Below are positions 8,268-20,596 of a DNA stretch of 64,000 nt, piece by piece. Source of the DNA: an uncultured Candidatus Saccharibacteria bacterium. Its GTDB lineage: Bacteria > Patescibacteriota > Minisyncoccia > Phycocordibacterales > UBA9973. A program made the position numbers and the translations under genes. The stretch covers positions 9,101-73,100 of the forward strand of contig CAYLKL010000003.1 in assembly GCA_964384645.1 (NCBI GenBank). Reading direction: 5' to 3'. Below the pieces are notes generated by a model that saw nothing but the letters and a program-made list of their open reading frames with translations, was not told where the DNA came from and ran no database searches. The stretch's first letter is position 1. Each line of letters opens with the position of its first letter.

Positions 8268-8708
8268 TTATGTAACTTTACCTCCTGCTTTTTCTATCTT
8301 AGCCTTTGCTGATGGACTTACCTCTAATCCTGAAACTTCTATTTTTTTATCTATTTCCCCAGCTGACAGAATTTTTATTCGTGGAGTCTTACCTCTTCTT
8401 AATACTATAACCTTTTTTTCAACCAATGTCGCTCTTGTGACCGATTCTCCGTTTGCAAATACCATTGATAGAACGTTTAGATTTATAGGAGTAACTACTT
8501 CTCTAAATCTCTTAAAAATATTTTTTCCTCGTCCACGAAGTTTTGGAAGTTTTTTAATAGTGTCTCTAATTTCTGGTCGCATTTTTCTACCAGATCTAGA
8601 TTTTTGACCCTTAGTACCTCGCCCTGCAGTCTTGGCGTGTTTCCCTCCACGACCAACAACTCGGTGCTTTTTTCTTTTTGTATTTCTTTGTAATTTACTT
8701 TGTTCCAT
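8268..8708 (-). CDS. rplO: 50S ribosomal protein L15
   Basis: KRVGRGGKHAKTAGRGTKGQKSRSG Gly/Arg-rich N-terminus. Confidence 0.95.
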   Translation of the reverse strand: MEQSKLQRNTKRKKHRVVGRGGKHAKTAGRGTKGQKSRSGRKMRPEIRDTIKKLPKLRGRGKNIFKRFREVVTPINLNVLSMVFANGESVTRATLVEKKVIVLRRGKTPRIKILSAGEIDKKIEVSGLEVSPSAKAKIEKAGGKVT

Positions 8709-8713
8709 AAAAA

Positions 8714-9379
8714 TTATTTATCTTCTTTTACTTCTGCAACCTTTGGTCTTTTTACATTAAGTACAGGCTTTCCAAAAACAGATAGTGCTTCCATTGTTGC
8801 TTTCGCAATGTTCATTTTATTTTTACTTCCAGAAAGAATTTTTGCAGTAACATTTTTTATACCTGCCAAAACAAGAATTTCTCGCACAGCACTTCCGGCA
8901 ACAAGACCTTTTGATCTGTTAGGAAATAGGTACACTTTTGAAGTCGAATATTTGGCGTGCACATCATGAGGCAAACTTAAATCTTTTGTAAGAGTTATTT
9001 TTACCATGTTTTTCTTTGCGTCTCGAGTCGCCTTGTTTATAGCCAAAGCTGTATCCAGTGCTTTTCCAACCCCAAGACCTATCTTCCCCTTCTTATCACC
9101 AAGTGCAACCAAAACAGCCAATGAAAATCTTCGTCCTCCAGCAACAACTCTAGTTACTCTTCTTGCAAGCAATGTCTTTTGATCAAATTCTGAATCAGGT
9201 CTTGGGCCACTTCTTCGTGGTCCATTAGAATTTGGTCCGCGTGAACCAAAAGATCTTTGTCCTCCAGTAGAATTACCTCTAGGAACAAAAGCTCTCTTTA
9301 CTGGTGCCGCCACTCCTGGAGCAGAAGTTTCTGCTACTACCGGTGTGTTATTTTCTGTTGTTGTGTTTGTGTCTTCCAT
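8714..9379 (-). CDS. rpsE: 30S ribosomal protein S5 with a ~60-aa low-complexity N-terminal extension
   Basis: VVAGGRRFSLAVLVALGDKKGKIGLGVGKA core. It directly abuts rplO with a 5-nt gap, so there is no L30 gene. Confidence 0.95.
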   Translation of the reverse strand: MEDTNTTTENNTPVVAETSAPGVAAPVKRAFVPRGNSTGGQRSFGSRGPNSNGPRRSGPRPDSEFDQKTLLARRVTRVVAGGRRFSLAVLVALGDKKGKIGLGVGKALDTALAINKATRDAKKNMVKITLTKDLSLPHDVHAKYSTSKVYLFPNRSKGLVAGSAVREILVLAGIKNVTAKILSGSKNKMNIAKATMEALSVFGKPVLNVKRPKVAEVKEDK

Positions 9380-9381
9380 AA

Positions 9382-9732
9382 TTAAAAAATTAATCCGCCT
9401 TCACGAGCTCCTTCTGCTAATTGCTTAATTCTTCCTGTGTATTTAAATCCACCTCGATCAAAAACAACTTTTGTTATTCCTGCATTCTTTGCATTAACAG
9501 CAATCGTTTTTCCAATCTCTTTAGCTCTTTCCATAGGAGAACCTTTTTCAATTTTTATATCTGATGCAGAAGCAAGAGTTTTTCCTGTTGTGTCATCAAT
9601 CAACTGAGTATATATTCTAGAGTTAGATTTGAAAACAGCAAGTCTTGGTCGCTCCAAAGTACCAGAAACTTTTGCTCTGATTCTTCTCTTAACTCTAAAT
9701 CTTTTTTCAACTTTTGATTTTGTTTTACTCAT
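9382..9732 (-). CDS. rplR: 50S ribosomal protein L18
   Basis: [20 protein letters not shown]...TLASAS motif. Confidence 0.95.
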
Positions 9733-9737
9733 AAGCC

Positions 9738-10274
9738 TTATGCAGTCTTCTTACCTTGTTTTCGTCTAATAACTTCATCGCTATATCTAAAACCCTTACC
9801 TTTGTACGGTTCTGGTTTCTTCAATGCTCGAGTTGATGCTGTAAATTCTCCTACGGCTTCTTTATCAATTCCTGAAACTGTTATGTTGTTTTTTTCTGCT
9901 GTAACAGTTAGACCTTCTGGTATTTTAACATTTACAGGATGTGAAAAACCTAAAGCTAAAACCAATTCACTTCCCTTCACTTCAGATTTAAAACCAACTC
10001 CTTCAAGAATTAATTTCTTTGTAAATAGATTGTTTACTCCATTTACCATATTTTTCAAATGAGAAGCGTATGTACCCCAAAGAGCTCGAGATGAAATTTC
10101 TTCGTTTAGAGGTGTTACTTGAGCAATGTTACCTTCTACTGTTATAGCTACAGCTTTTGTGTTAAACGGCTTTGATAGTTCGCCCTTAGGGCCTTTTACA
10201 GTCATTACACCATCTGTAATTGTTACAGATGTTCCAGCTGGTATTTCAATAGGTTGTTTTCCAATTCTTGACAT
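9738..10274 (-). CDS. rplF: 50S ribosomal protein L6
   Basis: [19 protein letters not shown] and the two-domain L6 pattern. Confidence 0.95.
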
Positions 10275-10280
10275 AAATTT

Positions 10281-10673
10281 TTACCAAATCAAAAATAATG
10301 GCTCTCCTCCGACCAATTCTTTTCTGGCGTCAACGCCTGAAAGAATTCCTTTTGGAGTAGATAGTACAATAATACCTCGACCACCTTTAACTAACTTTAT
10401 TTCTCTGTAACCATAATACAAACGTCTTGATGGCTTAGAAACTCTTTTTGCTTCTTTCACCTTTGCTGATCCGTCTTCTGCATATGCAAGATTTATATCC
10501 AAAACCTGGTGCCCTTGTTTGATTCTCTTTTCAAAAGAATCAATAAAGCCAGCTTTTTTTAAACAATCAAGAATCGCACTTTTGATGCTTGAGTGTCTAA
10601 CTGTGATTGATGTCTTTTTTGCGATTCCACCAACCTTTATTTCATTTACCATTGCTCCAATAGGGTCTGTCAT
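10281..10673 (-). CDS. rpsH: 30S ribosomal protein S8
   Basis: MTDPIGAMVNEIK N-terminus and C-terminal GGEPLFLIW. Confidence 0.9.
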   Translation of the reverse strand: MTDPIGAMVNEIKVGGIAKKTSITVRHSSIKSAILDCLKKAGFIDSFEKRIKQGHQVLDINLAYAEDGSAKVKEAKRVSKPSRRLYYGYREIKLVKGGRGIIVLSTPKGILSGVDARKELVGGEPLFLIW

Positions 10674-10683
10674 AAATTTATTT

Positions 10684-10869
10684 TTACCAAGATGACTTTC
10701 TAACTCCAGGAATCATTCCTTCGTTTGAAAGTTCTCTAAAGCAAATTCTGCAAAGACCGAAGTCTCTCATAAATCCCTTTCCTCTTCCACAACGAAAACA
10801 GCGATTCTTCGCTCTTGTAGAAAACTTGGGTGTACGCGCAGCGCGTACTTTTACTGATGTTTTTGCCAT
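10684..10869 (-). CDS. rpsZ: 30S ribosomal protein S14 type Z (Zn-ribbon, 61 aa)
   Basis: [23 protein letters not shown] CxxC...CxxC motif. 61 aa. Confidence 0.95.
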
Positions 10870-10967
10870 ATTTATAATTACTTCGCAATATCACACGATT
10901 TTTCTTGGATATCTTCGTCCGAAAACTCGGATACCCAAGGAGAACCGTGGATTGCTGAAGTCCTAAG

Positions 10968-10996
10968 ATACTACCAAAAGGGCTTTTGGATGTCAA
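10968..10996 (-). promoter_or_regulatory. Near-consensus sigma70 promoter driving rpsZ and downstream spc genes
   Basis: Minus strand reads TTGACA (10991-10996), a 17-nt spacer, then TAGTAT (10968-10973). It lies ~95 nt upstream of the rpsZ start and immediately after a terminator. Confidence 0.55.
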
Positions 10997-11002
10997 ATAA
11001 TT

Positions 11003-11033
11003 CAAAATAAAAAAGCTGGTTTTATCCAGCTTT
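11003..11033 (-). terminator. Intrinsic terminator after the inserted hypothetical gene
   Basis: Stem agctgg / ccagct followed by a T-run on the minus strand, directly downstream of the stop at 11037. Confidence 0.7.
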
Positions 11034-11036
11034 AGA

Positions 11037-11660
11037 TTAGGCACTACTTGCCAAATTTTTTAAATGAAACTCAGCCTGTTTTTTAATAGACTCTAAATGT
11101 CTTTTTTGATACAACTCAGCACCTTCATTTATTATCGCCTCAATGCCTTTTATATCGGGTTGTCTGAGATTCTTATTCTCAATCCGATTAAACAATACAG
11201 ATATCGCTTCCCTCTTACTATTCATTTCTTCTTCGTTGTAAAGTTTGGTGTGGTTGAAATCTGATTTTTCCGACCATTTTTTTATCTTTTTGTATATAAA
11301 CTTTACCCAAAGATAATCAAAAGGGTGAAATAGTACGTAAAGCAAAGTTAATGTGGAGAAGAAAAAAATAACACCTAGCAATTCCTTACTTAATTTATAT
11401 CCTACGGGTAAGACTTGCGTGTTATTAACCTCCAAATTCAACTCAAAGAATACATATAACAAAGACATAACAATCATAGCCGAAACAAGACCTAGCACAA
11501 TAATGCTGACTCTGTACCAAAATAAGTATAACCATAGATGATCTCTGAGCTCATAAAACCTCAATCTATTTTCTTTGGTCACCAAAAAAGATTCGAACCC
11601 GCTAATCTCTTTAAGGTTTTTAAAGACATCTTCAATGTTTATTATTTTATTTTTCTTCAT
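11037..11660 (-). CDS. Hypothetical membrane protein (2 TM) inserted inside the spc operon
   Basis: 207 aa with hydrophobic helices WLYLFWYRVSIIVLGLVSAMIVM and GVIFFFSTLTLLYVLF. No recognisable family. Confidence 0.5.
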   Translation of the reverse strand: MKKNKIINIEDVFKNLKEISGFESFLVTKENRLRFYELRDHLWLYLFWYRVSIIVLGLVSAMIVMSLLYVFFELNLEVNNTQVLPVGYKLSKELLGVIFFFSTLTLLYVLFHPFDYLWVKFIYKKIKKWSEKSDFNHTKLYNEEEMNSKREAISVLFNRIENKNLRQPDIKGIEAIINEGAELYQKRHLESIKKQAEFHLKNLASSA

Positions 11661-11726
11661 AATATTTAGTTTTTAGAGTTTCGTAAACTTTACTCTTTGG
11701 ATAAAAATTGTCAATAAAATAAAGCC

Positions 11727-12080
11727 TCAATTGAGGCTTTTAGTTGAAAATAATTTTTTTAATTGTGATTTTGTAACATAACTAGCAAGTCGTTCAGTGT
11801 CATTATTTTGAATAAATTCTATACTTTTTACTTCTTTATTCTCCACAACAACCTCAACGAAACAACCGTACAATTCATATAGAGCGAAGGTCTCTTTTTT
11901 TATTTTTTTAAGTTTAACAAAAGTACCACTTTCCAACAGAACACCAGCTCTTTCCTCAAGAGATATATCTACTTTAAATTCCAAACCTTTCATAGTTCTA
12001 AGTTTTATTTTAGAAACAATACTACAATAAATTAAAAAAGTAGCAAGTCTTTTACACTTCTCATAAAATAAAAAAACCAC
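11727..12080 (-). CDS. Hypothetical small protein inserted inside the spc operon
   Basis: ORF-track start is a GTG buried in the rplE terminator hairpin. The true start is more likely the internal ATG at 11993 (MKGLEFKV..., 88 aa). Confidence 0.35.
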   Translation of the reverse strand: MVFLFYEKCKRLATFLIYCSIVSKIKLRTMKGLEFKVDISLEERAGVLLESGTFVKLKKIKKETFALYELYGCFVEVVVENKEVKSIEFIQNNDTERLASYVTKSQLKKLFSTKSLN

Positions 12081-12097
12081 CGAATGGTGGAGTTTTT
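12072..12097 (-). terminator. Intrinsic terminator immediately after rplE
   Basis: Minus-strand stem ccacc-attc-ggtgg followed by TTTTTTT, 7 nt after the rplE stop. Confidence 0.7.
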
Positions 12098-12675
12098 TAT
12101 TGAATATTTGTTTTGAATGGAAGGCCGATATGTGTCAAAAAATCTTTTGCTTCTTCTTTTGATTTAGCAGATGTCTCGATTGTTATAGCCATTCCAAAAA
12201 TATCTTTAATATCTTCGTCTGATGTTTCTGGGAAAATAGTGTGTTCTTTGATTCCAAAAGTGATGTTTCCGATATTATCAACTGAGTTTGGGTTTATTCC
12301 TCTAAAGTCTTTTGTACGTGGAAGTGCAATATTTATAAGTTTTTCCAAAAAGTCTTGCATTCTATTTCCTCTTAAAATTACCAAAAGTCCGATTGGGTCT
12401 CCTTGTCTTACCTTGAAAGATGCAACTGATTTTTTAGCTCCACGAACAGCTGGTTTTTGACCAGTTATTTTTGCAAGTCTGTCAGAAACAAAATCATTTC
12501 TTTTGTTGTCTTTCTTCATCATTGTTCCAGTTGCAACAGAAACAGCAACTTTTAAAATCTTTGGAGAAGACATTACGTTCTTATATCCAAATTTGTCTTT
12601 TGCTTCTTTAAAAAAGCTATCTTGTTTTTCTTTGATTGATTTCATATTAAATTTCTTTGCCAGACTTTTTGGCAA
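12097..12675 (-). CDS. rplE: 50S ribosomal protein L5
   Basis: KNVMSSPKILKVAVSV... and FRGINPNSVDNIGNITFGIKEHTIFPE pattern. Confidence 0.95.
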   Translation of the reverse strand: MPKSLAKKFNMKSIKEKQDSFFKEAKDKFGYKNVMSSPKILKVAVSVATGTMMKKDNKRNDFVSDRLAKITGQKPAVRGAKKSVASFKVRQGDPIGLLVILRGNRMQDFLEKLINIALPRTKDFRGINPNSVDNIGNITFGIKEHTIFPETSDEDIKDIFGMAITIETSAKSKEEAKDFLTHIGLPFKTNIQ

Positions 12676-15337: not shown

Positions 15338-15688
15338 TTATTTCTTTTTCTTATCATCTGAAGATGAAGCTTTTGCGGCCTTAGCTGCTGCAATTTCAGA
15401 TTCTTTTGCTTTTGCTTCAAGTTCTTTTTGCATCTTACCTCCGTGTCTTCTAAATGTCTTAGTTGGAGAGAATTCACCCAATCTGTGACCAACCATATCT
15501 TCTGTTGCTAGGACTTCAATGTGGTTTTTTCCATTGTGAACACCAAAAGTGAAACCAACCATTTCTGGACTGATTACACATGCTCGTGACCATGTTTTAA
15601 TAACCCCGATTTCTCGAGGGTTTTTTCCTAGCACTTTCTTTAGGACTCTTTCGTCAACGTAAGGTCCTTTTTTAGTTGATCTTGTCAT
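15338..15688 (-). CDS. rpsS: 30S ribosomal protein S19 with an Ala/Lys-rich C-terminal tail
   Basis: [19 protein letters not shown] and [18 protein letters not shown]. The ORF-track start at 15745 is probably an upstream over-extension. Confidence 0.9.
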
Positions 15689-15827
15689 AAGGGTAAAATA
15701 AATAGCTCTCCAAAGAGCTAGAGACAGATTAGCAGAAAGAGCCATACCTTGTCAAATTATTAATCAGTTAGGGTTGATATTTAGCCACAAATAGTTACTA
15801 TAAGAAAAACACTTTAAAAACTATCAT

Positions 15828-16754
15828 ATGCAATACACTAAAACACCCCAAAAATTACCCGTTTCTCCATTAGGAAATGGAGCTGGAATCATAAAAACAG
15901 AAGATGATTTCAACAAGTTTCTGAAAATTGAAGATATTCCAGAAATATTGATTGGAAGCATTACTTCCCTTCCCCGTGAAGGCAATTCCGGAAACACTTT
16001 TTATTCTGGGCCAGGATATACACTAAATGCACTCGGGTTGCCGAACCCCGGAATTCAGTACTGGCTAGAAAATGATCGACTGAAAAAATGTGCAGAAAGG
16101 GCGCATAAAAAAGAAAAGCAAGTTGGGATAAGTATTGTTGGATTCAAAGAAGGAGAACTTGGAGAAATCGCCCAAATTGCCGAAGATGCTGAGATTGATT
16201 TCATTGAGATTAATGCTGGATGTCCTAATGTCTGGGCCGAAGGTAAACAAAAAGAAATTATAAGTTTCTCTTCTGAGGCATTATCCTTTGCTCTAGGAGA
16301 AATTTATGGGGCGACCGAAAAAATAAAAATTGGCTTCAAACTTTCTCCATATTCAAACCCCGGAGAACTTGAGAGAATTGCTAAATTCTTTAATCTCACC
16401 CACAAAGCCTTTGATAGAATCTCTTTCATTACCACCTGTAACACTTTCCCAAATTCATTCTCAGAAGATGAGGAAGGAAATCCACGAATAAGTGCCAATA
16501 ATGGTTACGGCGGAATGGCTGGAGAAGCAATCATTGCAATTGCTCTGGGGCAAGTAAAACAATTCAAAGCAGTCTTAATACCCGAAATTAAAATAAAGGG
16601 AGTCGGCGGAATAACAAAAGGAAGTGATGTAAGGAATTTTTTTAAAGCAGGAGCCTCGATGGTTCAGATTGTTTCAGCTTATTACCGAAACGAAGACCTT
16701 AGTGTCTTCTCTCGCATAAGGGCAGAGTACGAAATGCTTACAGAAAAAGTGTAA
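15828..16754 (+). CDS. pyrD: Dihydroorotate dehydrogenase, class 1 (Cys active-site base)
   Basis: FIEINAGCPN active-site motif and IKGVGGITKGSDVRNFFKAGASMVQIVSAYY C-terminal FMN-binding pattern. Confidence 0.7.
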   Translation: MQYTKTPQKLPVSPLGNGAGIIKTEDDFNKFLKIEDIPEILIGSITSLPREGNSGNTFYSGPGYTLNALGLPNPGIQYWLENDRLKKCAERAHKKEKQVGISIVGFKEGELGEIAQIAEDAEIDFIEINAGCPNVWAEGKQKEIISFSSEALSFALGEIYGATEKIKIGFKLSPYSNPGELERIAKFFNLTHKAFDRISFITTCNTFPNSFSEDEEGNPRISANNGYGGMAGEAIIAIALGQVKQFKAVLIPEIKIKGVGGITKGSDVRNFFKAGASMVQIVSAYYRNEDLSVFSRIRAEYEMLTEKV

Positions 16755-16850: not shown

Positions 16851-17894
16851 ATGAAAGAAATCCAAATTATAAGACCTAGTGATATGCATTTACACTTCCG
16901 TGAAGGAGAAATGCTAAATCTTGTAGCTCCGCACACCGCACGACATTTCTATTATGGACTCGTTATGCCGAACACGACCAACCCACCTATTCGAACTGGA
17001 GAAAATGCAAAAAATTATGAGGAGCAGATTTTATCTGCAACAAAAGATTACCCTCATTTCATTCCAGTCATGACGATTAAAGCCTATGACACCGATGAAC
17101 ACCTAACAACTCCAGAGGTTGTAGAGGGAGCATATTCAAATGGCGCCAAAGCAATAAAAGTTTATCCTCAAGGCGCGACTACTAATTCTCATGATGCTGT
17201 TAAAGATATTAAAAAACTTTACCCTGCATTTGAAAAAGCAGAAGAGCTCGGAATGAGAGTATGTCTCCACGGAGAAAAACCAGATGATGAAATAATTGCT
17301 CTGGAATGGGAAAGACTTTTCTATAGTGATGTAAAAGAGTTATATAAAACTTTTCCAGAATTACGAATTATCTTTGAACACATTACTTGCGAAAGCACTA
17401 TTGGTTTCATTCAAGATGCACCGGACAATGTAGCAGCTACAATTACTGCCCATCACGCACTGGTTAATTTCAATCATCTCGCAGGTGGAATGTTGCGCCC
17501 CGACTTGTACTGCAAACCTCTACTTAAATCCCCGCAGGATCAAAAAGCGCTCCGGAAAATTATGATAAGTGGAAACCCAAAATTCTTCCTGGGAACAGAC
17601 AGTGCTCCACACGTTGAAGAGAAAAAATATTGTGACCATGGATGTGCAGGAGTTTATACTGCCCCAATTGCAATGTCTCTTTACACCCAGATCTTCTATG
17701 AAGAAGGTGAGCTATCTAGACTCGAGAATTTTTCATCAGTTTTTGGACCAAGGTTTTATGGTCTTGAAATTCCAACTGAAAAAATTACCGTTATAAAAGA
17801 AGAATTCATCCCTAATAAATTTTATCAAGAAGGAAACCTTAAGATAAATAATTACTGGGGTGGTATGAAGCTCGACTGGAAAGTTAAAGAATAA
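16851..17894 (+). CDS. pyrC: Dihydroorotase, type II (E. coli PyrC-like)
   Basis: SDMHLHFREGEM HxH metal site. ...KVYPQGATTNSHD..., RIIFEHIT, ...LGTDSAPH...CGCAGV are collinear with E. coli PyrC as recalled. Confidence 0.85.
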   Translation: MKEIQIIRPSDMHLHFREGEMLNLVAPHTARHFYYGLVMPNTTNPPIRTGENAKNYEEQILSATKDYPHFIPVMTIKAYDTDEHLTTPEVVEGAYSNGAKAIKVYPQGATTNSHDAVKDIKKLYPAFEKAEELGMRVCLHGEKPDDEIIALEWERLFYSDVKELYKTFPELRIIFEHITCESTIGFIQDAPDNVAATITAHHALVNFNHLAGGMLRPDLYCKPLLKSPQDQKALRKIMISGNPKFFLGTDSAPHVEEKKYCDHGCAGVYTAPIAMSLYTQIFYEEGELSRLENFSSVFGPRFYGLEIPTEKITVIKEEFIPNKFYQEGNLKINNYWGGMKLDWKVKE

Positions 17895-17898
17895 ATTG

Positions 17899-17927
17899 AA
17901 AGAGACCTGAAATGGTCTCTTTTTTAT
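17899..17927 (+). terminator. Intrinsic terminator after pyrC
   Basis: Stem agagacc-tgaaat-ggtctct followed by TTTTTT. Confidence 0.75.
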
Positions 17928-17984
17928 TTGCCCCAAAATAGTAGGTGTGATAGAAATATGAAAATTCATTTAAAAACAAAAACT

Positions 17985-18725
17985 ATGTCAAAACTACAAA
18001 GAAATGCAGAAGCCCTCGCTGAATGGGCTCTTAAAATTGGAGCAATAAAAATAAACCCGAAAGATCCATTTAAGTGGGCTTCCGGCTGGAGAAGTCCAAT
18101 TTATAATGACAATCGAATGTCGCTAGGCTATCCCGAGATGTTTCAAAGAGTCGTTGAGTCTTTTTCAGACCTTCTATCTGAAACTTTCCAAGGTGACTGG
18201 AAAAGAGAAATTGATGTAATTATGGGAACATCTACGGCTGGAATCCCGCACGCGACTATTCTTGCTTATCTTCACGGACTTCCGTTTGGATACATAAGAG
18301 ATAAAGCTAAAGACCACGGTCTGAAAAATCGGATAGAAGGAATAGATGTCGACAAAGATTTATCCGGCAAAAGAGTTTTGCTTATTGAAGACCTTATTTC
18401 AACTGGCGGAAGCAGTGTAAGCGCTGTGCAAGCAATAAGAAACGCCAATGGAAAAATCGATCATTGCATTTCAATTTTCAATTATGGTTTTCCAAAAGCC
18501 AAAGAAATGTTTGCCGGAAATGCTTCATTTTCAAAAGATGGAGTAGAACGACTTTCTGAACCATGCCAGATTTATTCACTCTTGGATTACCCCACTCTTC
18601 TTGAGGTTGCTATCAAAGTAGATTACATAAGCGAAGAAGACAGGGCTATGCTTGATGAATGGAGTAAGGATCCGGAAAGCTGGAGTAATAACTGGAAATC
18701 TCAGAACGAGAAAGTTTCAGCGTAA
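17985..18725 (+). CDS. pyrE: Orotate phosphoribosyltransferase
   Basis: VLLIEDLISTGGSSVSAV PRPP-binding motif and GWRSPIYND. The ORF track starts at 17928; the likely start is the ATG at 17985 (MSKLQRN). Confidence 0.8.
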   Translation: MSKLQRNAEALAEWALKIGAIKINPKDPFKWASGWRSPIYNDNRMSLGYPEMFQRVVESFSDLLSETFQGDWKREIDVIMGTSTAGIPHATILAYLHGLPFGYIRDKAKDHGLKNRIEGIDVDKDLSGKRVLLIEDLISTGGSSVSAVQAIRNANGKIDHCISIFNYGFPKAKEMFAGNASFSKDGVERLSEPCQIYSLLDYPTLLEVAIKVDYISEEDRAMLDEWSKDPESWSNNWKSQNEKVSA

Positions 18726-18737
18726 GTTTTGAAATAA

Positions 18738-18772
18738 AAACAGGGAGACACAAATGTGTCTCCCTTTTTAAT
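18738..18772. terminator. Bidirectional intrinsic terminator between pyrE (+) and pyrF (-)
   Basis: Stem gggagacac-aaat-gtgtctccc with an A-run upstream and a T-run downstream. Confidence 0.8.
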
Positions 18773-18781
18773 TTAAATTGA

Positions 18782-19660
18782 TTAGTGAATAGATTGAGCG
18801 CGTAGTTCCATAACTTCTTTACGATATTCTGTTATGAGATCATGGGTCTCTTGAGCTGCTTCTCTGATGTTGCCTTTTGTGAAAATTATTCCACTCGAGG
18901 AATTAATAATGACTCCTGTTCCAAAACGATCTAGTCCATTTTCCACCACCTGCTTAAGGCTTCCTCCTTGTGTGCCTACACCAGGAATAAGAATTGGAAT
19001 ATCCCCTATAATCTCCCGAATTATTTGTAATTCTTCAGGATATGTTGCGCCGGCCACCAACAAACAATTACCATTTATGTTCCACTTATCACGCACGGTT
19101 TCTGCCACAACTTCAAAAAGTTTTTTGAATTGGGAATTACCAACCCTTACTTCTAAATCCTGAAATTCACCTGCTCCAGAATTAGAAGTCCGACAAAGCA
19201 CAATTACGCCCTTATCTTTTTGGTCAAGAAATGGCTTCATGGCTTCGCTTCCAAGATACGGATGTACCGTAATAGCATCGGCTTCGAGTTCATCAAAAAT
19301 TCCAGCAATATAGCCCATATTGGTATTCCCAATATCAGCTCTCTTTCCGTCCAGAATAATTGGAACATCTGGTGCAACATCATCCAGATATGCTTTTGTT
19401 CCAAACAATGCGGCAATTCCAATTTCTCCGTGAGCTTCGTAAAAAGCAATATTCGGCTTATAGGCACAAACAAGATCTTTTGTTTGATCGATCACCATTT
19501 TATTGAATTCGATAATAGTATCGAGTATTCGATGTCGGCTGTCTATAAATTTGTCGTGGATGAATTGGGGGATTTTTTTGTATTCAGAATCAAGCCCAAC
19601 ACATAAAAATTTATCTTCTGCCCATTTGGCGCGAAGCATTTCCATAAAGTTTCTTTCCAT
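18782..19660 (-). CDS. pyrF: Orotidine 5'-phosphate decarboxylase (long type-2 form)
   Basis: FLCVGLD, KPNIAFYEA and ILDGKRADIGNT (DxKxxDIxxT) motifs. Confidence 0.75.
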   Translation of the reverse strand: MERNFMEMLRAKWAEDKFLCVGLDSEYKKIPQFIHDKFIDSRHRILDTIIEFNKMVIDQTKDLVCAYKPNIAFYEAHGEIGIAALFGTKAYLDDVAPDVPIILDGKRADIGNTNMGYIAGIFDELEADAITVHPYLGSEAMKPFLDQKDKGVIVLCRTSNSGAGEFQDLEVRVGNSQFKKLFEVVAETVRDKWNINGNCLLVAGATYPEELQIIREIIGDIPILIPGVGTQGGSLKQVVENGLDRFGTGVIINSSSGIIFTKGNIREAAQETHDLITEYRKEVMELRAQSIH

Positions 19661-19753: not shown

Positions 19754-20596
19754 TTATTTCTTTCGTCGAGATTTTACTCTTCGTGTAACAATAAGCTTGT
19801 TTGAGTACTTCTTTGGAGTTCGTGTCTTTCTTCCTCCTGTAACCTTACCATGACGTGTTTTAGGGCGTCTTAGACCTCGTCCTTGTCGTCCTTCTCCTCC
19901 ACCGTATGGGTGGTCAACAGGGTTCATGGCAGTACCTCGAACAGTTGGTCTAATACCAAGCCATCGTGAGCGTCCAGCCTTACCAAAATTCTTCAACTTG
20001 TGTTCTTCGTTTGAAACTGAACCAATAGTAGCCCAGCATTCTTCAGAAACTTTTCGAACTTCAGTTGATGGCATTTTGATTTGAGAATACCCAGCGTCGT
20101 TTGCAACAACTTGAGCGAAACTTCCAGCAGAACGAACAAGCTTTGCGCCTCCGTTTGCTTTTAGTTCAATGTTGTAAACAAAAGTACCAGATGGAATTTT
20201 CTTCAAAGGAAGTCTGTTTCCGATCGTTACTGGTGCATCAGCTGAAACAATAAAAGTATCACCTACTTTTACGTTCTTCGAAGCAAGAACATATCTTCTT
20301 TCGCCGTCTTTATACAAAGCTCGAGCAATAAAAGATGATCTATTTGGATCGTATTCTACGTGTTCCACTTTAGCAGGGATATTTTTCTTGTCATACATGA
20401 AATCAACATCTCTGAAAAGTCTCTTATTTCCACCACCTTTGTGTTGAGTTGTAACACGACCAAGGTTATTTCTTCCAACACTTCTCTTTCTTCCATAAGT
20501 CAAAGACTTTAGAGGATCATTCGTTGTGATTTGACCTCGATAGTTTACTGTTATCATCCCACGTCGTGATGGTGTTGTTGGTTTATACTTTTTCAT
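19754..20596 (-). CDS. rplB: 50S ribosomal protein L2
   Basis: GRNNLGRVTTQHKGGG... and MNPVDHPYGGGEGR pattern. 280 aa. Confidence 0.95.
   Translation of the reverse strand: MKKYKPTTPSRRGMITVNYRGQITTNDPLKSLTYGRKRSVGRNNLGRVTTQHKGGGNKRLFRDVDFMYDKKNIPAKVEHVEYDPNRSSFIARALYKDGERRYVLASKNVKVGDTFIVSADAPVTIGNRLPLKKIPSGTFVYNIELKANGGAKLVRSAGSFAQVVANDAGYSQIKMPSTEVRKVSEECWATIGSVSNEEHKLKNFGKAGRSRWLGIRPTVRGTAMNPVDHPYGGGEGRQGRGLRRPKTRHGKVTGGRKTRTPKKYSNKLIVTRRVKSRRKK

Follow-up and report, generated by a model that had tools for sequence, protein, structure and literature searches.

The question raised by the locus described here is what separates two genes, rplE for ribosomal protein L5 and rpsN/rpsZ for S14, that are adjacent and co-transcribed in most bacteria (PMC3616713). 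The locus lies in a stretch of 64,000 nucleotides (nt), hereafter the window, from contig CAYLKL010000003.1 of an uncultured Candidatus Saccharibacteria bacterium (GenBank assembly GCA_964384645.1). In its spc cluster rplE is followed by an open reading frame (ORF) of 88 amino acids (aa), here designated ORF A, by one of 207 aa, ORF B, and then by rpsZ, with all elements on the minus strand. A first-pass annotation made from the letters alone took the two ORFs for an insertion that had split the operon, closed by a terminator and followed by a promoter from which transcription restarts. The arrangement is not a mis-assembly, since independent assemblies of two sequencing runs, SRR12712864 and SRR12712865, gave identical contigs. 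Of more value than the insertion itself are a structured RNA leader found 5' of rpsZ and, after it, a pattern of three junctions in the ribosomal-protein supercluster that serve as slots for accessory genes.

By L5, the closest genomes are metagenome-assembled genomes (MAGs) of Candidatus Paceibacterota/Nomurabacteria, which belong to the Patescibacteria or Candidate Phyla Radiation (CPR). In the window rpsZ (10684-10869; a zinc-ribbon S14 of 61 aa, Pfam S14, 6.9e-23) is the first gene of a unit running from S14 to SecY and is preceded by a 5' untranslated region (UTR) of 98 nt (10870-10967) and by a predicted promoter at 10968-10996. The TTGACA and TAGTAT boxes with their 17-nt spacer were present as first annotated, and the -10 box was found to have in addition a TG extension (TG-n-TAGTAT). 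A plain promoter scan was not significant (40 sites against 40.4 expected); the extended pattern TTGACW-N13-16-TGNTAKKAT occurred once in the 64 kb, with 0.03 occurrences expected. The same promoter was then recognised in relatives. In a set of 74 leader sequences, comprising 61 species-level genomes and 13 metagenome contigs, a predicted extended -10 promoter lies directly upstream of the leader in every locus, with TTGAC(T/A/G), the TG extension and TAnnnT in 74/74 and a spacer of 17 nt in 71 and 16 nt in 3.

Both the rpsZ promoter and the leader of about 100 nt are conserved with or without cargo between rplE and rpsZ, and this bears directly on the history of the locus. The usual contiguity of the two genes and the terminators that flank the insert would fit a recent insertion that broke the operon, with the promoter restarting transcription behind it. 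However, 25 species with gene-free gaps (250 nt or less) keep the same promoter and leader, the cargo-free gap of about 165-200 nt being made up of terminator, promoter and leader, or of promoter and leader alone, and the homology with relatives carrying different cargo resumes just 5' of the -35 box. A recent break is hence very improbable. The presence of promoter and leader in cargo-free genomes indicates that the operon was already divided, so that insertion exploits a boundary and does not create it. Ten cargo-free relatives lack a terminator between the rplE stop codon and the promoter, which weighs against uncoupling as a general rule: judged by its motifs, a dedicated rpsZ promoter is universal in the clade, and full uncoupling is frequent, not universal.

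Nor is an occupied L5|S14 junction the rarity that had been supposed. In the 67 species-level genomes with both L5 and S14 in the fetched locus, the gap measures 72-2982 nt (median 662) and is never tight, a terminator 3' of rplE is found in 37/67, and cargo is the majority state, with gaps above 450 nt in 38/67 (57%) holding 1-7 ORFs, mostly co-oriented; in another three genomes no S14 lies closer to L5 than 5 kb. The synteny comparison that the first-pass annotation had called for thus disclosed a slot occupied by genes, at a boundary which predates its cargo and is common to the clade. Its view that transcription signals divide the spc cluster, and that rpsZ-rpsH-rplF and their downstream genes are transcribed from a strong promoter, is upheld as a prediction by the conservation of that promoter in 74/74 loci.

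A structured RNA 5' of rpsZ

The 5' UTR of rpsZ, overlooked in the first-pass annotation, is a conserved structured RNA. The window leader has a minimum free energy of -32.5 kcal/mol (z = -4.27) and forms a long irregular hairpin, in which P1 (10957-10960/10881-10884), P2 (10952-10955/10885-10888) and P3 (10943-10951/10891-10900, with U10893 bulged) are followed by an internal loop of CUC (10940-10942) opposite AAA (10901-10903) and by P4 (10930-10939/10904-10913). Analysis of a structure-blind MAFFT alignment of 51 leaders by RNAalifold returned two helices, P3 and P4, with compensatory changes in 16/18 pairs. When the four-helix model was applied, 84.1% of the cells were paired in the 51 sequences and 86.6% in the 74, compared with 36-53% in slid controls, and the covariation score was 0.57 (0.568) and 0.60, respectively, against at most 0.20 in the controls. 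For the 51 sequences by themselves the control values were 36-51% and at most 0.197. Double changes were detected in 26 of the 29 leader pairs in the set of 74.

A covariance model built from the 51-leader alignment gave one match per locus, always immediately 5' of rpsZ-rpsH, and its sole match in the window was at 10867-10975 (73 bits, E 4e-15). Nine genome loci outside the seed alignment were matched strongly. An independent metagenome scan used a loose, mostly non-specific pattern, such that true leaders were recovered from 13 of 80 fetched loci, and in the model-positive contigs the leader stood 5' of rpsZ-rpsH in 13/13. Six of the most divergent relatives gave no leader match, among them one (L049) that keeps a short core hairpin only. 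A search of the window with Rfam 15 gave no match at the gathering threshold and none overlapping 10867-10975 at E up to 10; the weak matches elsewhere in the window at that limit were chance, terminator-like ones. Two marks of a ribosomal-protein leader (r-leader), a structure supported by covariation and a constant place in the 5' UTR of ribosomal-protein genes, were thus both found, the latter in 61 genome loci, in the window and in 13/13 contigs.

With this support, it is probable that the leader is a cis-regulatory RNA. No leader of rpsN/rpsZ and no r-leader in CPR bacteria was found described in the literature consulted, and the element is apparently an undescribed, covariation-supported leader of these organisms.

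Several more specific assignments were considered for the leader and dropped. The segment UUCUCCUU could not serve as an anti-Shine-Dalgarno sequester, as rpsZ and its neighbours have no Shine-Dalgarno sequence; a transcription attenuator was discarded, as no leader hairpin has a trailing U-run; and the pattern of the core fits neither a kink-turn nor a loop E motif. Of note, four relatives (L044, L054, L057 and L071) carry an extra element of about 70 nt between the leader and the rpsZ ATG, in which CCCGUUAGAAAAUU is predicted to pair with AAUUUUCUAAUGGG right before the AUG and would sequester the start codon.

Ribosomal protein S8 as candidate ligand

The part of the leader that points to a ligand is its core. 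Across 63 distinct sequences the core has invariant A, U and C on the 5' strand and G-A-n-A-U on the 3' strand. The C-G, U-A and A-U pairs are invariant in 74/74 around a two-base bulge n-A, of which the A is invariant (63/63) and the base preceding it is U in 56/63 and another base in the rest. The purine-pyrimidine pair flanking the core covaries without exception (GC 38, AU 36). In the window the 3' half G-A-U-A-U-U (10887-10892) pairs with A-A-U-C (10950-10953), leaving U10890 and A10889 bulged, in a manner resembling the site bound by S8 in helix 21 of 16S rRNA. In E. coli 16S rRNA this site reads A596-G597-U598-C599/G639-A640-U641-A642-C643-U644, and the window leader has A-A-U-C/G-A-U-A-U-U at the equivalent positions.

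The S8 site is a helix broken by an asymmetric loop with an invariant bulged A642, in which the variable base 641 is tied to the 597-643 pair, with a 598/640 pair, a 596-644 pair and a bulged base 595 (PMC4176348). Two of its features recur in the leader, namely an invariant bulged A after a variable base and a U-A pair stacked on a C-G pair. The reference in this comparison is helix 21 of E. coli; neither the window nor any of the fetched loci contains a 16S gene.

The gene for S8, rpsH (10281-10673), comes second in the unit; it was taken from the ORF list, and Pfam Ribosomal_S8 matched the identical gene in L001. From S14 to SecY the genes are tightly packed, the median gaps not exceeding 26 nt, a spacing compatible with translational coupling, and S8 has an established role as repressor of the E. 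coli spc operon (PMC3616713). It is on account of the helix 21-like core, the place of S8 in the unit, this precedent and the tight packing that S8 is proposed as the ligand. The leader would then be an autoregulatory operator: excess S8 would bind the invariant R-A-U-C/G-A-n-A-U-Y asymmetric loop, which imitates the helix 21 site, and repress translation of rpsZ, and the repression would spread by translational coupling to the tightly packed genes downstream.

A number of observations weigh against this proposal. The equivalent of the 597-643 pair is A-U in 74/74 instead of the conserved G-C, although in SELEX (systematic evolution of ligands through exponential enrichment) work isosteric substitutes for this pair bind S8 (cited in PMC4176348). 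There is an extra 1-nt bulge beside the core C-G pair, and the 595-like bulge is 0-2 bp off its rRNA position, the bulged 5' base being adjacent in the majority GAUC type, whereas the window and the L030 type have it at a distance of 1-2 bp. The base of the operator is about 14 nt upstream of the AUG, with no overlap of the start codon and no Shine-Dalgarno sequence. In the S8 of the clade (window, L014-L093) STPKG is found where the E. coli protein has STSKG, the Ser106 of which makes a base-specific contact to A642 (PMC4176348). Last, the S8 motif is short, and the nearly invariant CUC/AAA loop (UUCUCCUU/AAGAAAA) is not explained by S8 binding. On balance, the chances that S8 is the ligand of the leader appear about even, judged from the features of the RNA and of the unit it precedes.

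The unexplained loop leads to the possibility that another protein of the unit (L18, S14, S5, L6 or L15) is the ligand, perhaps through the CUC/AAA element, which lies 7-8 bp above the S8-like core and has an invariant U and A and conserved C.A mismatches; moreover, it is known that a ligand assigned from gene content alone is uncertain (PMC7247131). Among the proteins of the unit, though, only S8 has a precedent as spc repressor, and it binds rRNA independently, while the minimal leader of L049 retains the S8-like core and lacks the CUC/AAA loop, so that a different ligand seems unlikely. The leader might also act without any protein, as a 5'-terminal stabilising or processing hairpin that guards a long and heavily used mRNA from 5'-end-dependent decay; its hairpin is very stable, starts a few nt from the predicted 5' end and leaves the start codon uncovered. 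A stabiliser needs just a stem, whereas here the unpaired and non-canonical positions are invariant while the stems have turned over completely, and this explanation is regarded as slightly less plausible still. The best overall account of the locus, and one that we favour with some reserve, is that of a clade-wide slot, an ancestral promoter and an S8-type operator.

Cassettes and open junctions in the supercluster

The cargo at L5|S14 in the window consists of two real genes, as first annotated. The gene upstream of them, rplE (12097-12645; 182 aa, Pfam Ribosomal_L5 and L5_C), is the last of a unit running from S19 to L5 and ends in a terminator at 12065-12098, with a hairpin CCACC-AUUC-GGUGG at 12077-12090 and a T-run at 12065-12076. 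This terminator had been called strong; it is real and at the place given, yet modest, with a GC core of just 5 bp and about -10.0 kcal/mol. ORF A (11727-11993) encodes 88 aa from its ATG and is preceded by a weak promoter-like site at 12019-12046 (TTGCTA-16-TAGTAT) which matches at 8/12 positions, under the scan threshold, and reads TTGTCA..TATTAT in L009. Of the 88-117 aa first allowed for this protein only the shorter length was retained, backed by gene callers and homologues; the 117-aa version would start at a GTG inside the rplE terminator, upstream of the promoter-like site. A terminator 3' of ORF A (11713-11741; 8-bp stem, -11.5 kcal/mol) is kept in L003, L009 and L014. It is followed by the promoter-like site of ORF B at 11687-11714, TTGACA-16-TAAAGT (TTGACAAT..TAAAGT, score 10/12), by a stereotyped 5' UTR and by ORF B itself (11037-11660; 207 aa), for which two hydrophobic helices were predicted from hydropathy, at about residues 41-72 and 93-118, in agreement with the two transmembrane (TM) segments first noted. 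The terminator closing the insert, annotated at 11003-11033, was located at 11004-11034 (hairpin 11012-11033, T-run 11004-11011; 8-bp stem, -10.5 kcal/mol).

All three terminators (-10 to -11.5 kcal/mol) are only a few bases away from a stop codon, each as a GC-rich hairpin with a U-run, and terminator-like sites were enriched in the scanned region (24 against 10.0 +/- 3.5 expected). As a terminator and a promoter stand between ORF A and ORF B, the two are separate units: they are two independent monocistronic cassettes, each with its own predicted promoter and terminator, and not the single inserted block of the earlier reading, in which these signals had escaped notice.

Neither ORF gave a significant match in Pfam, PHROGs or PADLOC, and the best family matches, with E of 0.12 and 0.03, were treated as noise. 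Homologues of ORF A (72-100% identity) occur only in a handful of very close relatives, where they adjoin rplE wherever the flank is visible. A word-indexed search found three close homologues of ORF B, and an exhaustive HMMER search of 1.84 billion representative proteins found its own cluster and one marginal match, P0007, a protein of 195 aa with the same kind of two-TM layout. ORF A had a ratio of nonsynonymous to synonymous substitution rates (dN/dS) of 0.34-0.48 and ORF B, compared with L012, one of 0.33, L5 giving 0.035-0.11 over the same comparisons. By these searches and values the two ORFs are coding, fast-evolving, lineage-restricted orphans under purifying selection, which answers the objection, foreseen in the first-pass annotation, that they might have no coding signal or conservation. 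An AlphaFold2 (AF2) model of ORF A comprises a helix, a four-strand meander and two helices (predicted local distance difference test score, pLDDT, 68); its fold matches to colicin D, Pur-alpha, MRP2 and PC4-like proteins were weak and were not taken as evidence. The AF2 model of ORF B is unusable (pLDDT 51). The product of ORF A is taken to be small and soluble and that of ORF B to be a small protein of the membrane; both genes are lineage-specific accessory ones.

Relatives of the same genus, with L5 about 98% identical, differ in what they carry at L5|S14. ORF A then ORF B are found in the window and in L003; ORF A is followed by a 386-aa AIR-synthase-like gene in L006, L008 and L014, and by genes of 192 and 386 aa in L009; L012, on a short contig without L5 and S14, has a 195-aa gene and then one of 208 aa, the ORF B homologue. 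DNA homology to relatives with different cargo ends within or just after ORF A and resumes at 11000, one turn 5' of the rpsZ -35 box. The junctions between cassettes of the genus follow one grammar: first comes a stop codon, then a GC hairpin with the tail TTTTTTATT after it, then TTGACAAT-N-TAAAGT, a UTR of the CAGGGAAACT type and an ATG. The string TTGACAAT..TAAAGT occurs once in the window and has paralogous copies 5' of other cassettes in L009, L012 and L014. Moreover, the window has between ORF A and ORF B the upstream portion of a junction which in L009 stands before the 192-aa gene, and this would fit the loss of that cassette by recombination between paralogous junctions. It is likely, from these comparisons, that cassettes turn over by recombination between nearly identical junctions of terminator tail, promoter and 5' UTR.

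The cassette-like organisation, the stereotyped junctions, the variable content among close relatives and, in one relative, a tail-fibre chaperone domain could also be read as the work of a mobile element, such as integron-like cassettes, a genomic island, a phage or a transposon. However, no integrase or transposase match was obtained for the two ORFs in Pfam, PHROG or PADLOC, no tRNA or transfer-messenger RNA occurs in the window, and the repeat search disclosed no att, attC, att-like or insertion sequence-like boundaries and no flanking direct or inverted repeats, the sole repeats being T-runs of terminators; those at the junctions are ordinary promoter and terminator sequences. Delivery by a mobile element is therefore held to be highly improbable. 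Even less credit is given to the idea that ORF A, ORF B or both are chance ORFs in an AT-rich spacer, as the want of family matches and the low-confidence structure of ORF B might suggest: dN/dS stays at 0.33-0.48 while synonymous sites diverge, each ORF has its own promoter-like site and terminator, and the two-TM layout of ORF B is shared by a distant homologue. Taken together, the slot, its cassettes and the ancestral promoter with its leader are put forward with high confidence.

Across the clade, the cargo of the slot falls into about 65 unrelated protein clusters, including a recurrent pilin-like pair, AIR-synthase-like, lectin-like/Laminin_G, peptidoglycan-binding, Kelch, AAA_14/DUF4143 and Tim44-like proteins, the tail-fibre chaperone domain of the one relative and many orphans. 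The window is an ordinary member of a clade-wide accessory-gene hotspot. The recurrent module pairs a protein of about 107 aa (7 copies) with one of about 180 aa (11 copies) in L019, L025, L037, L078, L082, L088 and others, and is duplicated in L078; the roughly 180-aa member from L019, the only one scanned, has an N-terminal methylation motif of the type IV pilin-like kind.

When each adjacent gene pair from L2 to Map was surveyed, a junction counting as open above 300 nt, only three were open, namely L2|S19 (83%), L5|S14 (58%) and SecY|Adk (37%), the remaining fifteen exceeding 300 nt in 0-1% of cases. The supercluster is split across the clade into the units ...L2 | S19...L5 | S14...SecY | Adk.... 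The DNA from the end of rplE to the rpsZ promoter would lie outside every essential transcript, and may for that reason have accepted genes without harm and become a slot for accessory ones.

The other two junctions were inspected as well. At L2|S19 the window is also interrupted, by a pyrimidine-biosynthesis set between rplB (19757-20596) and rpsS (15338-15688): a pyrF-like gene on the minus strand (18782-19660) and three plus-strand ORFs (17928-18725, 16851-17894 and 15828-16754) that are, from their translations alone, putative pyrE, pyrC and pyrD. Relatives have only orotidine-monophosphate decarboxylase or a 127-aa orphan there. Palindromic hairpins with T-runs on both strands, at 18742-18765 between convergent genes ending at 18725 (plus) and 18782 (minus) and at 17898-17923 between two plus-strand ORFs, of which one has its end at 17894 and the next its start at 17928, look like bidirectional terminators. 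The rpsS gene has a conserved promoter of its own, TTGACWTTATTTT..TTTGCTAKTAT, in the region 15689-15775 (minus strand), found also in L014-L065, and after it nearly all relatives have a conserved short hairpin with a U-run, AAGCUC-NNNN-GAGCUUUUUGUUU (15703-15720 in the window), a second candidate leader or attenuator for the S19...L5 unit. At SecY|Adk the window is tight (6997/7003), and L003 has two orphan genes, of 272 and 119 aa, between secY and adk (9336-10520).

Three further features of the ribosomal genes were noted in the window. The rpsE and rplO genes are adjacent (8708-8714) with no rpmD (L30) between them; L30 is reported to be absent from CPR bacteria, and the adjacency agrees. 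S5 (8714-9379) has a low-complexity N-terminal extension of about 60 aa, and L22 (14879-15331) a K/E-rich C-terminal tail.

Comparison with known systems

The genomes of CPR bacteria are reduced and their ribosomes unusual, and no account of how these organisms balance the synthesis of ribosomal proteins was found in the literature; a leader 5' of rpsZ-rpsH would, if the present interpretation is true, offer an operator that can be tested. If S8 is its ligand, an S8 operator would exist outside the Gammaproteobacteria, to which the E. coli-type one was assigned by Fu et al. (PMC3616713), as another case of unrelated RNAs converging on the mimicry of one rRNA site. The spc operon would stay contiguous only as far as transcription and translational coupling require, and with a promoter placed inside the cluster the boundary there would become a favoured slot of accessory genes that evolve fast and mostly belong to the surface or the membrane, a rule of use in MAG annotation and in finding lineage-specific genes for interaction with the host. 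It may even be, though we offer this as a doubtful extension, that the leader evolved independently as an operator responsive to S8 and represents the first CPR-specific class of r-leader, and that re-partitioning of the S10-spc supercluster into units each with promoter and regulation of its own made three fixed landing pads (L2|S19, L5|S14 and SecY|Adk), which in these streamlined genomes would be the main places where accessory genes are gained and lost, by recombinase-free recombination between stereotyped terminator-promoter junctions.

As an accessory-gene hotspot, the L5|S14 slot agrees with others in its fixed position between core genes and in the unrelated cargo of different relatives. 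Unlike the usual ones it is placed within the ribosomal-protein supercluster, where gene order in bacterial genomes is as a rule among the best conserved. It differs from integrons and genomic islands in that no recombinase, tRNA or att sites were found and the cargo consists of single-gene promoter-terminator cassettes.

With the r-leaders described earlier (Fu et al. 2013, PMC3616713; Eckert and Weinberg 2020, PMC7247131), the rpsZ leader shares covariation, a constant position relative to ribosomal-protein genes, a place downstream of a predicted promoter and some likeness to an rRNA site. Table 1 of PMC7247131 lists 20 new leaders, of which none is 5' of rpsN/rpsZ or has S8 as predicted ligand. 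In the literature consulted, no paper naming both 'ribosomal protein leader' and Patescibacteria was found, nor a description of any S8 operator other than that of E. coli.

A further close counterpart is the S8 operator of the E. coli spc operon. Both are cis-acting RNAs in the spc cluster and, by hypothesis here, mimics of helix 21 of 16S rRNA; they have in common the U-A pair, the bulged n-A with its invariant A, two Watson-Crick pairs, S8 encoded downstream and tightly packed downstream genes. The E. coli operator is inside the operon, at the rplX-rplE junction, which is tight in the window, and overlaps the rplE start codon, whereas the leader described here is a genuine rpsZ 5' UTR downstream of a predicted promoter of its own and ends about 14 nt before the AUG. 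It also has A-U in place of G-C at 597-643, extra helices and a second conserved loop, and the two show no similarity in sequence or by covariance model, as no Rfam match was obtained. In position, context and sequence model the rpsZ leader thus differs from the E. coli S8-operator family, and on these grounds it is placed outside it.

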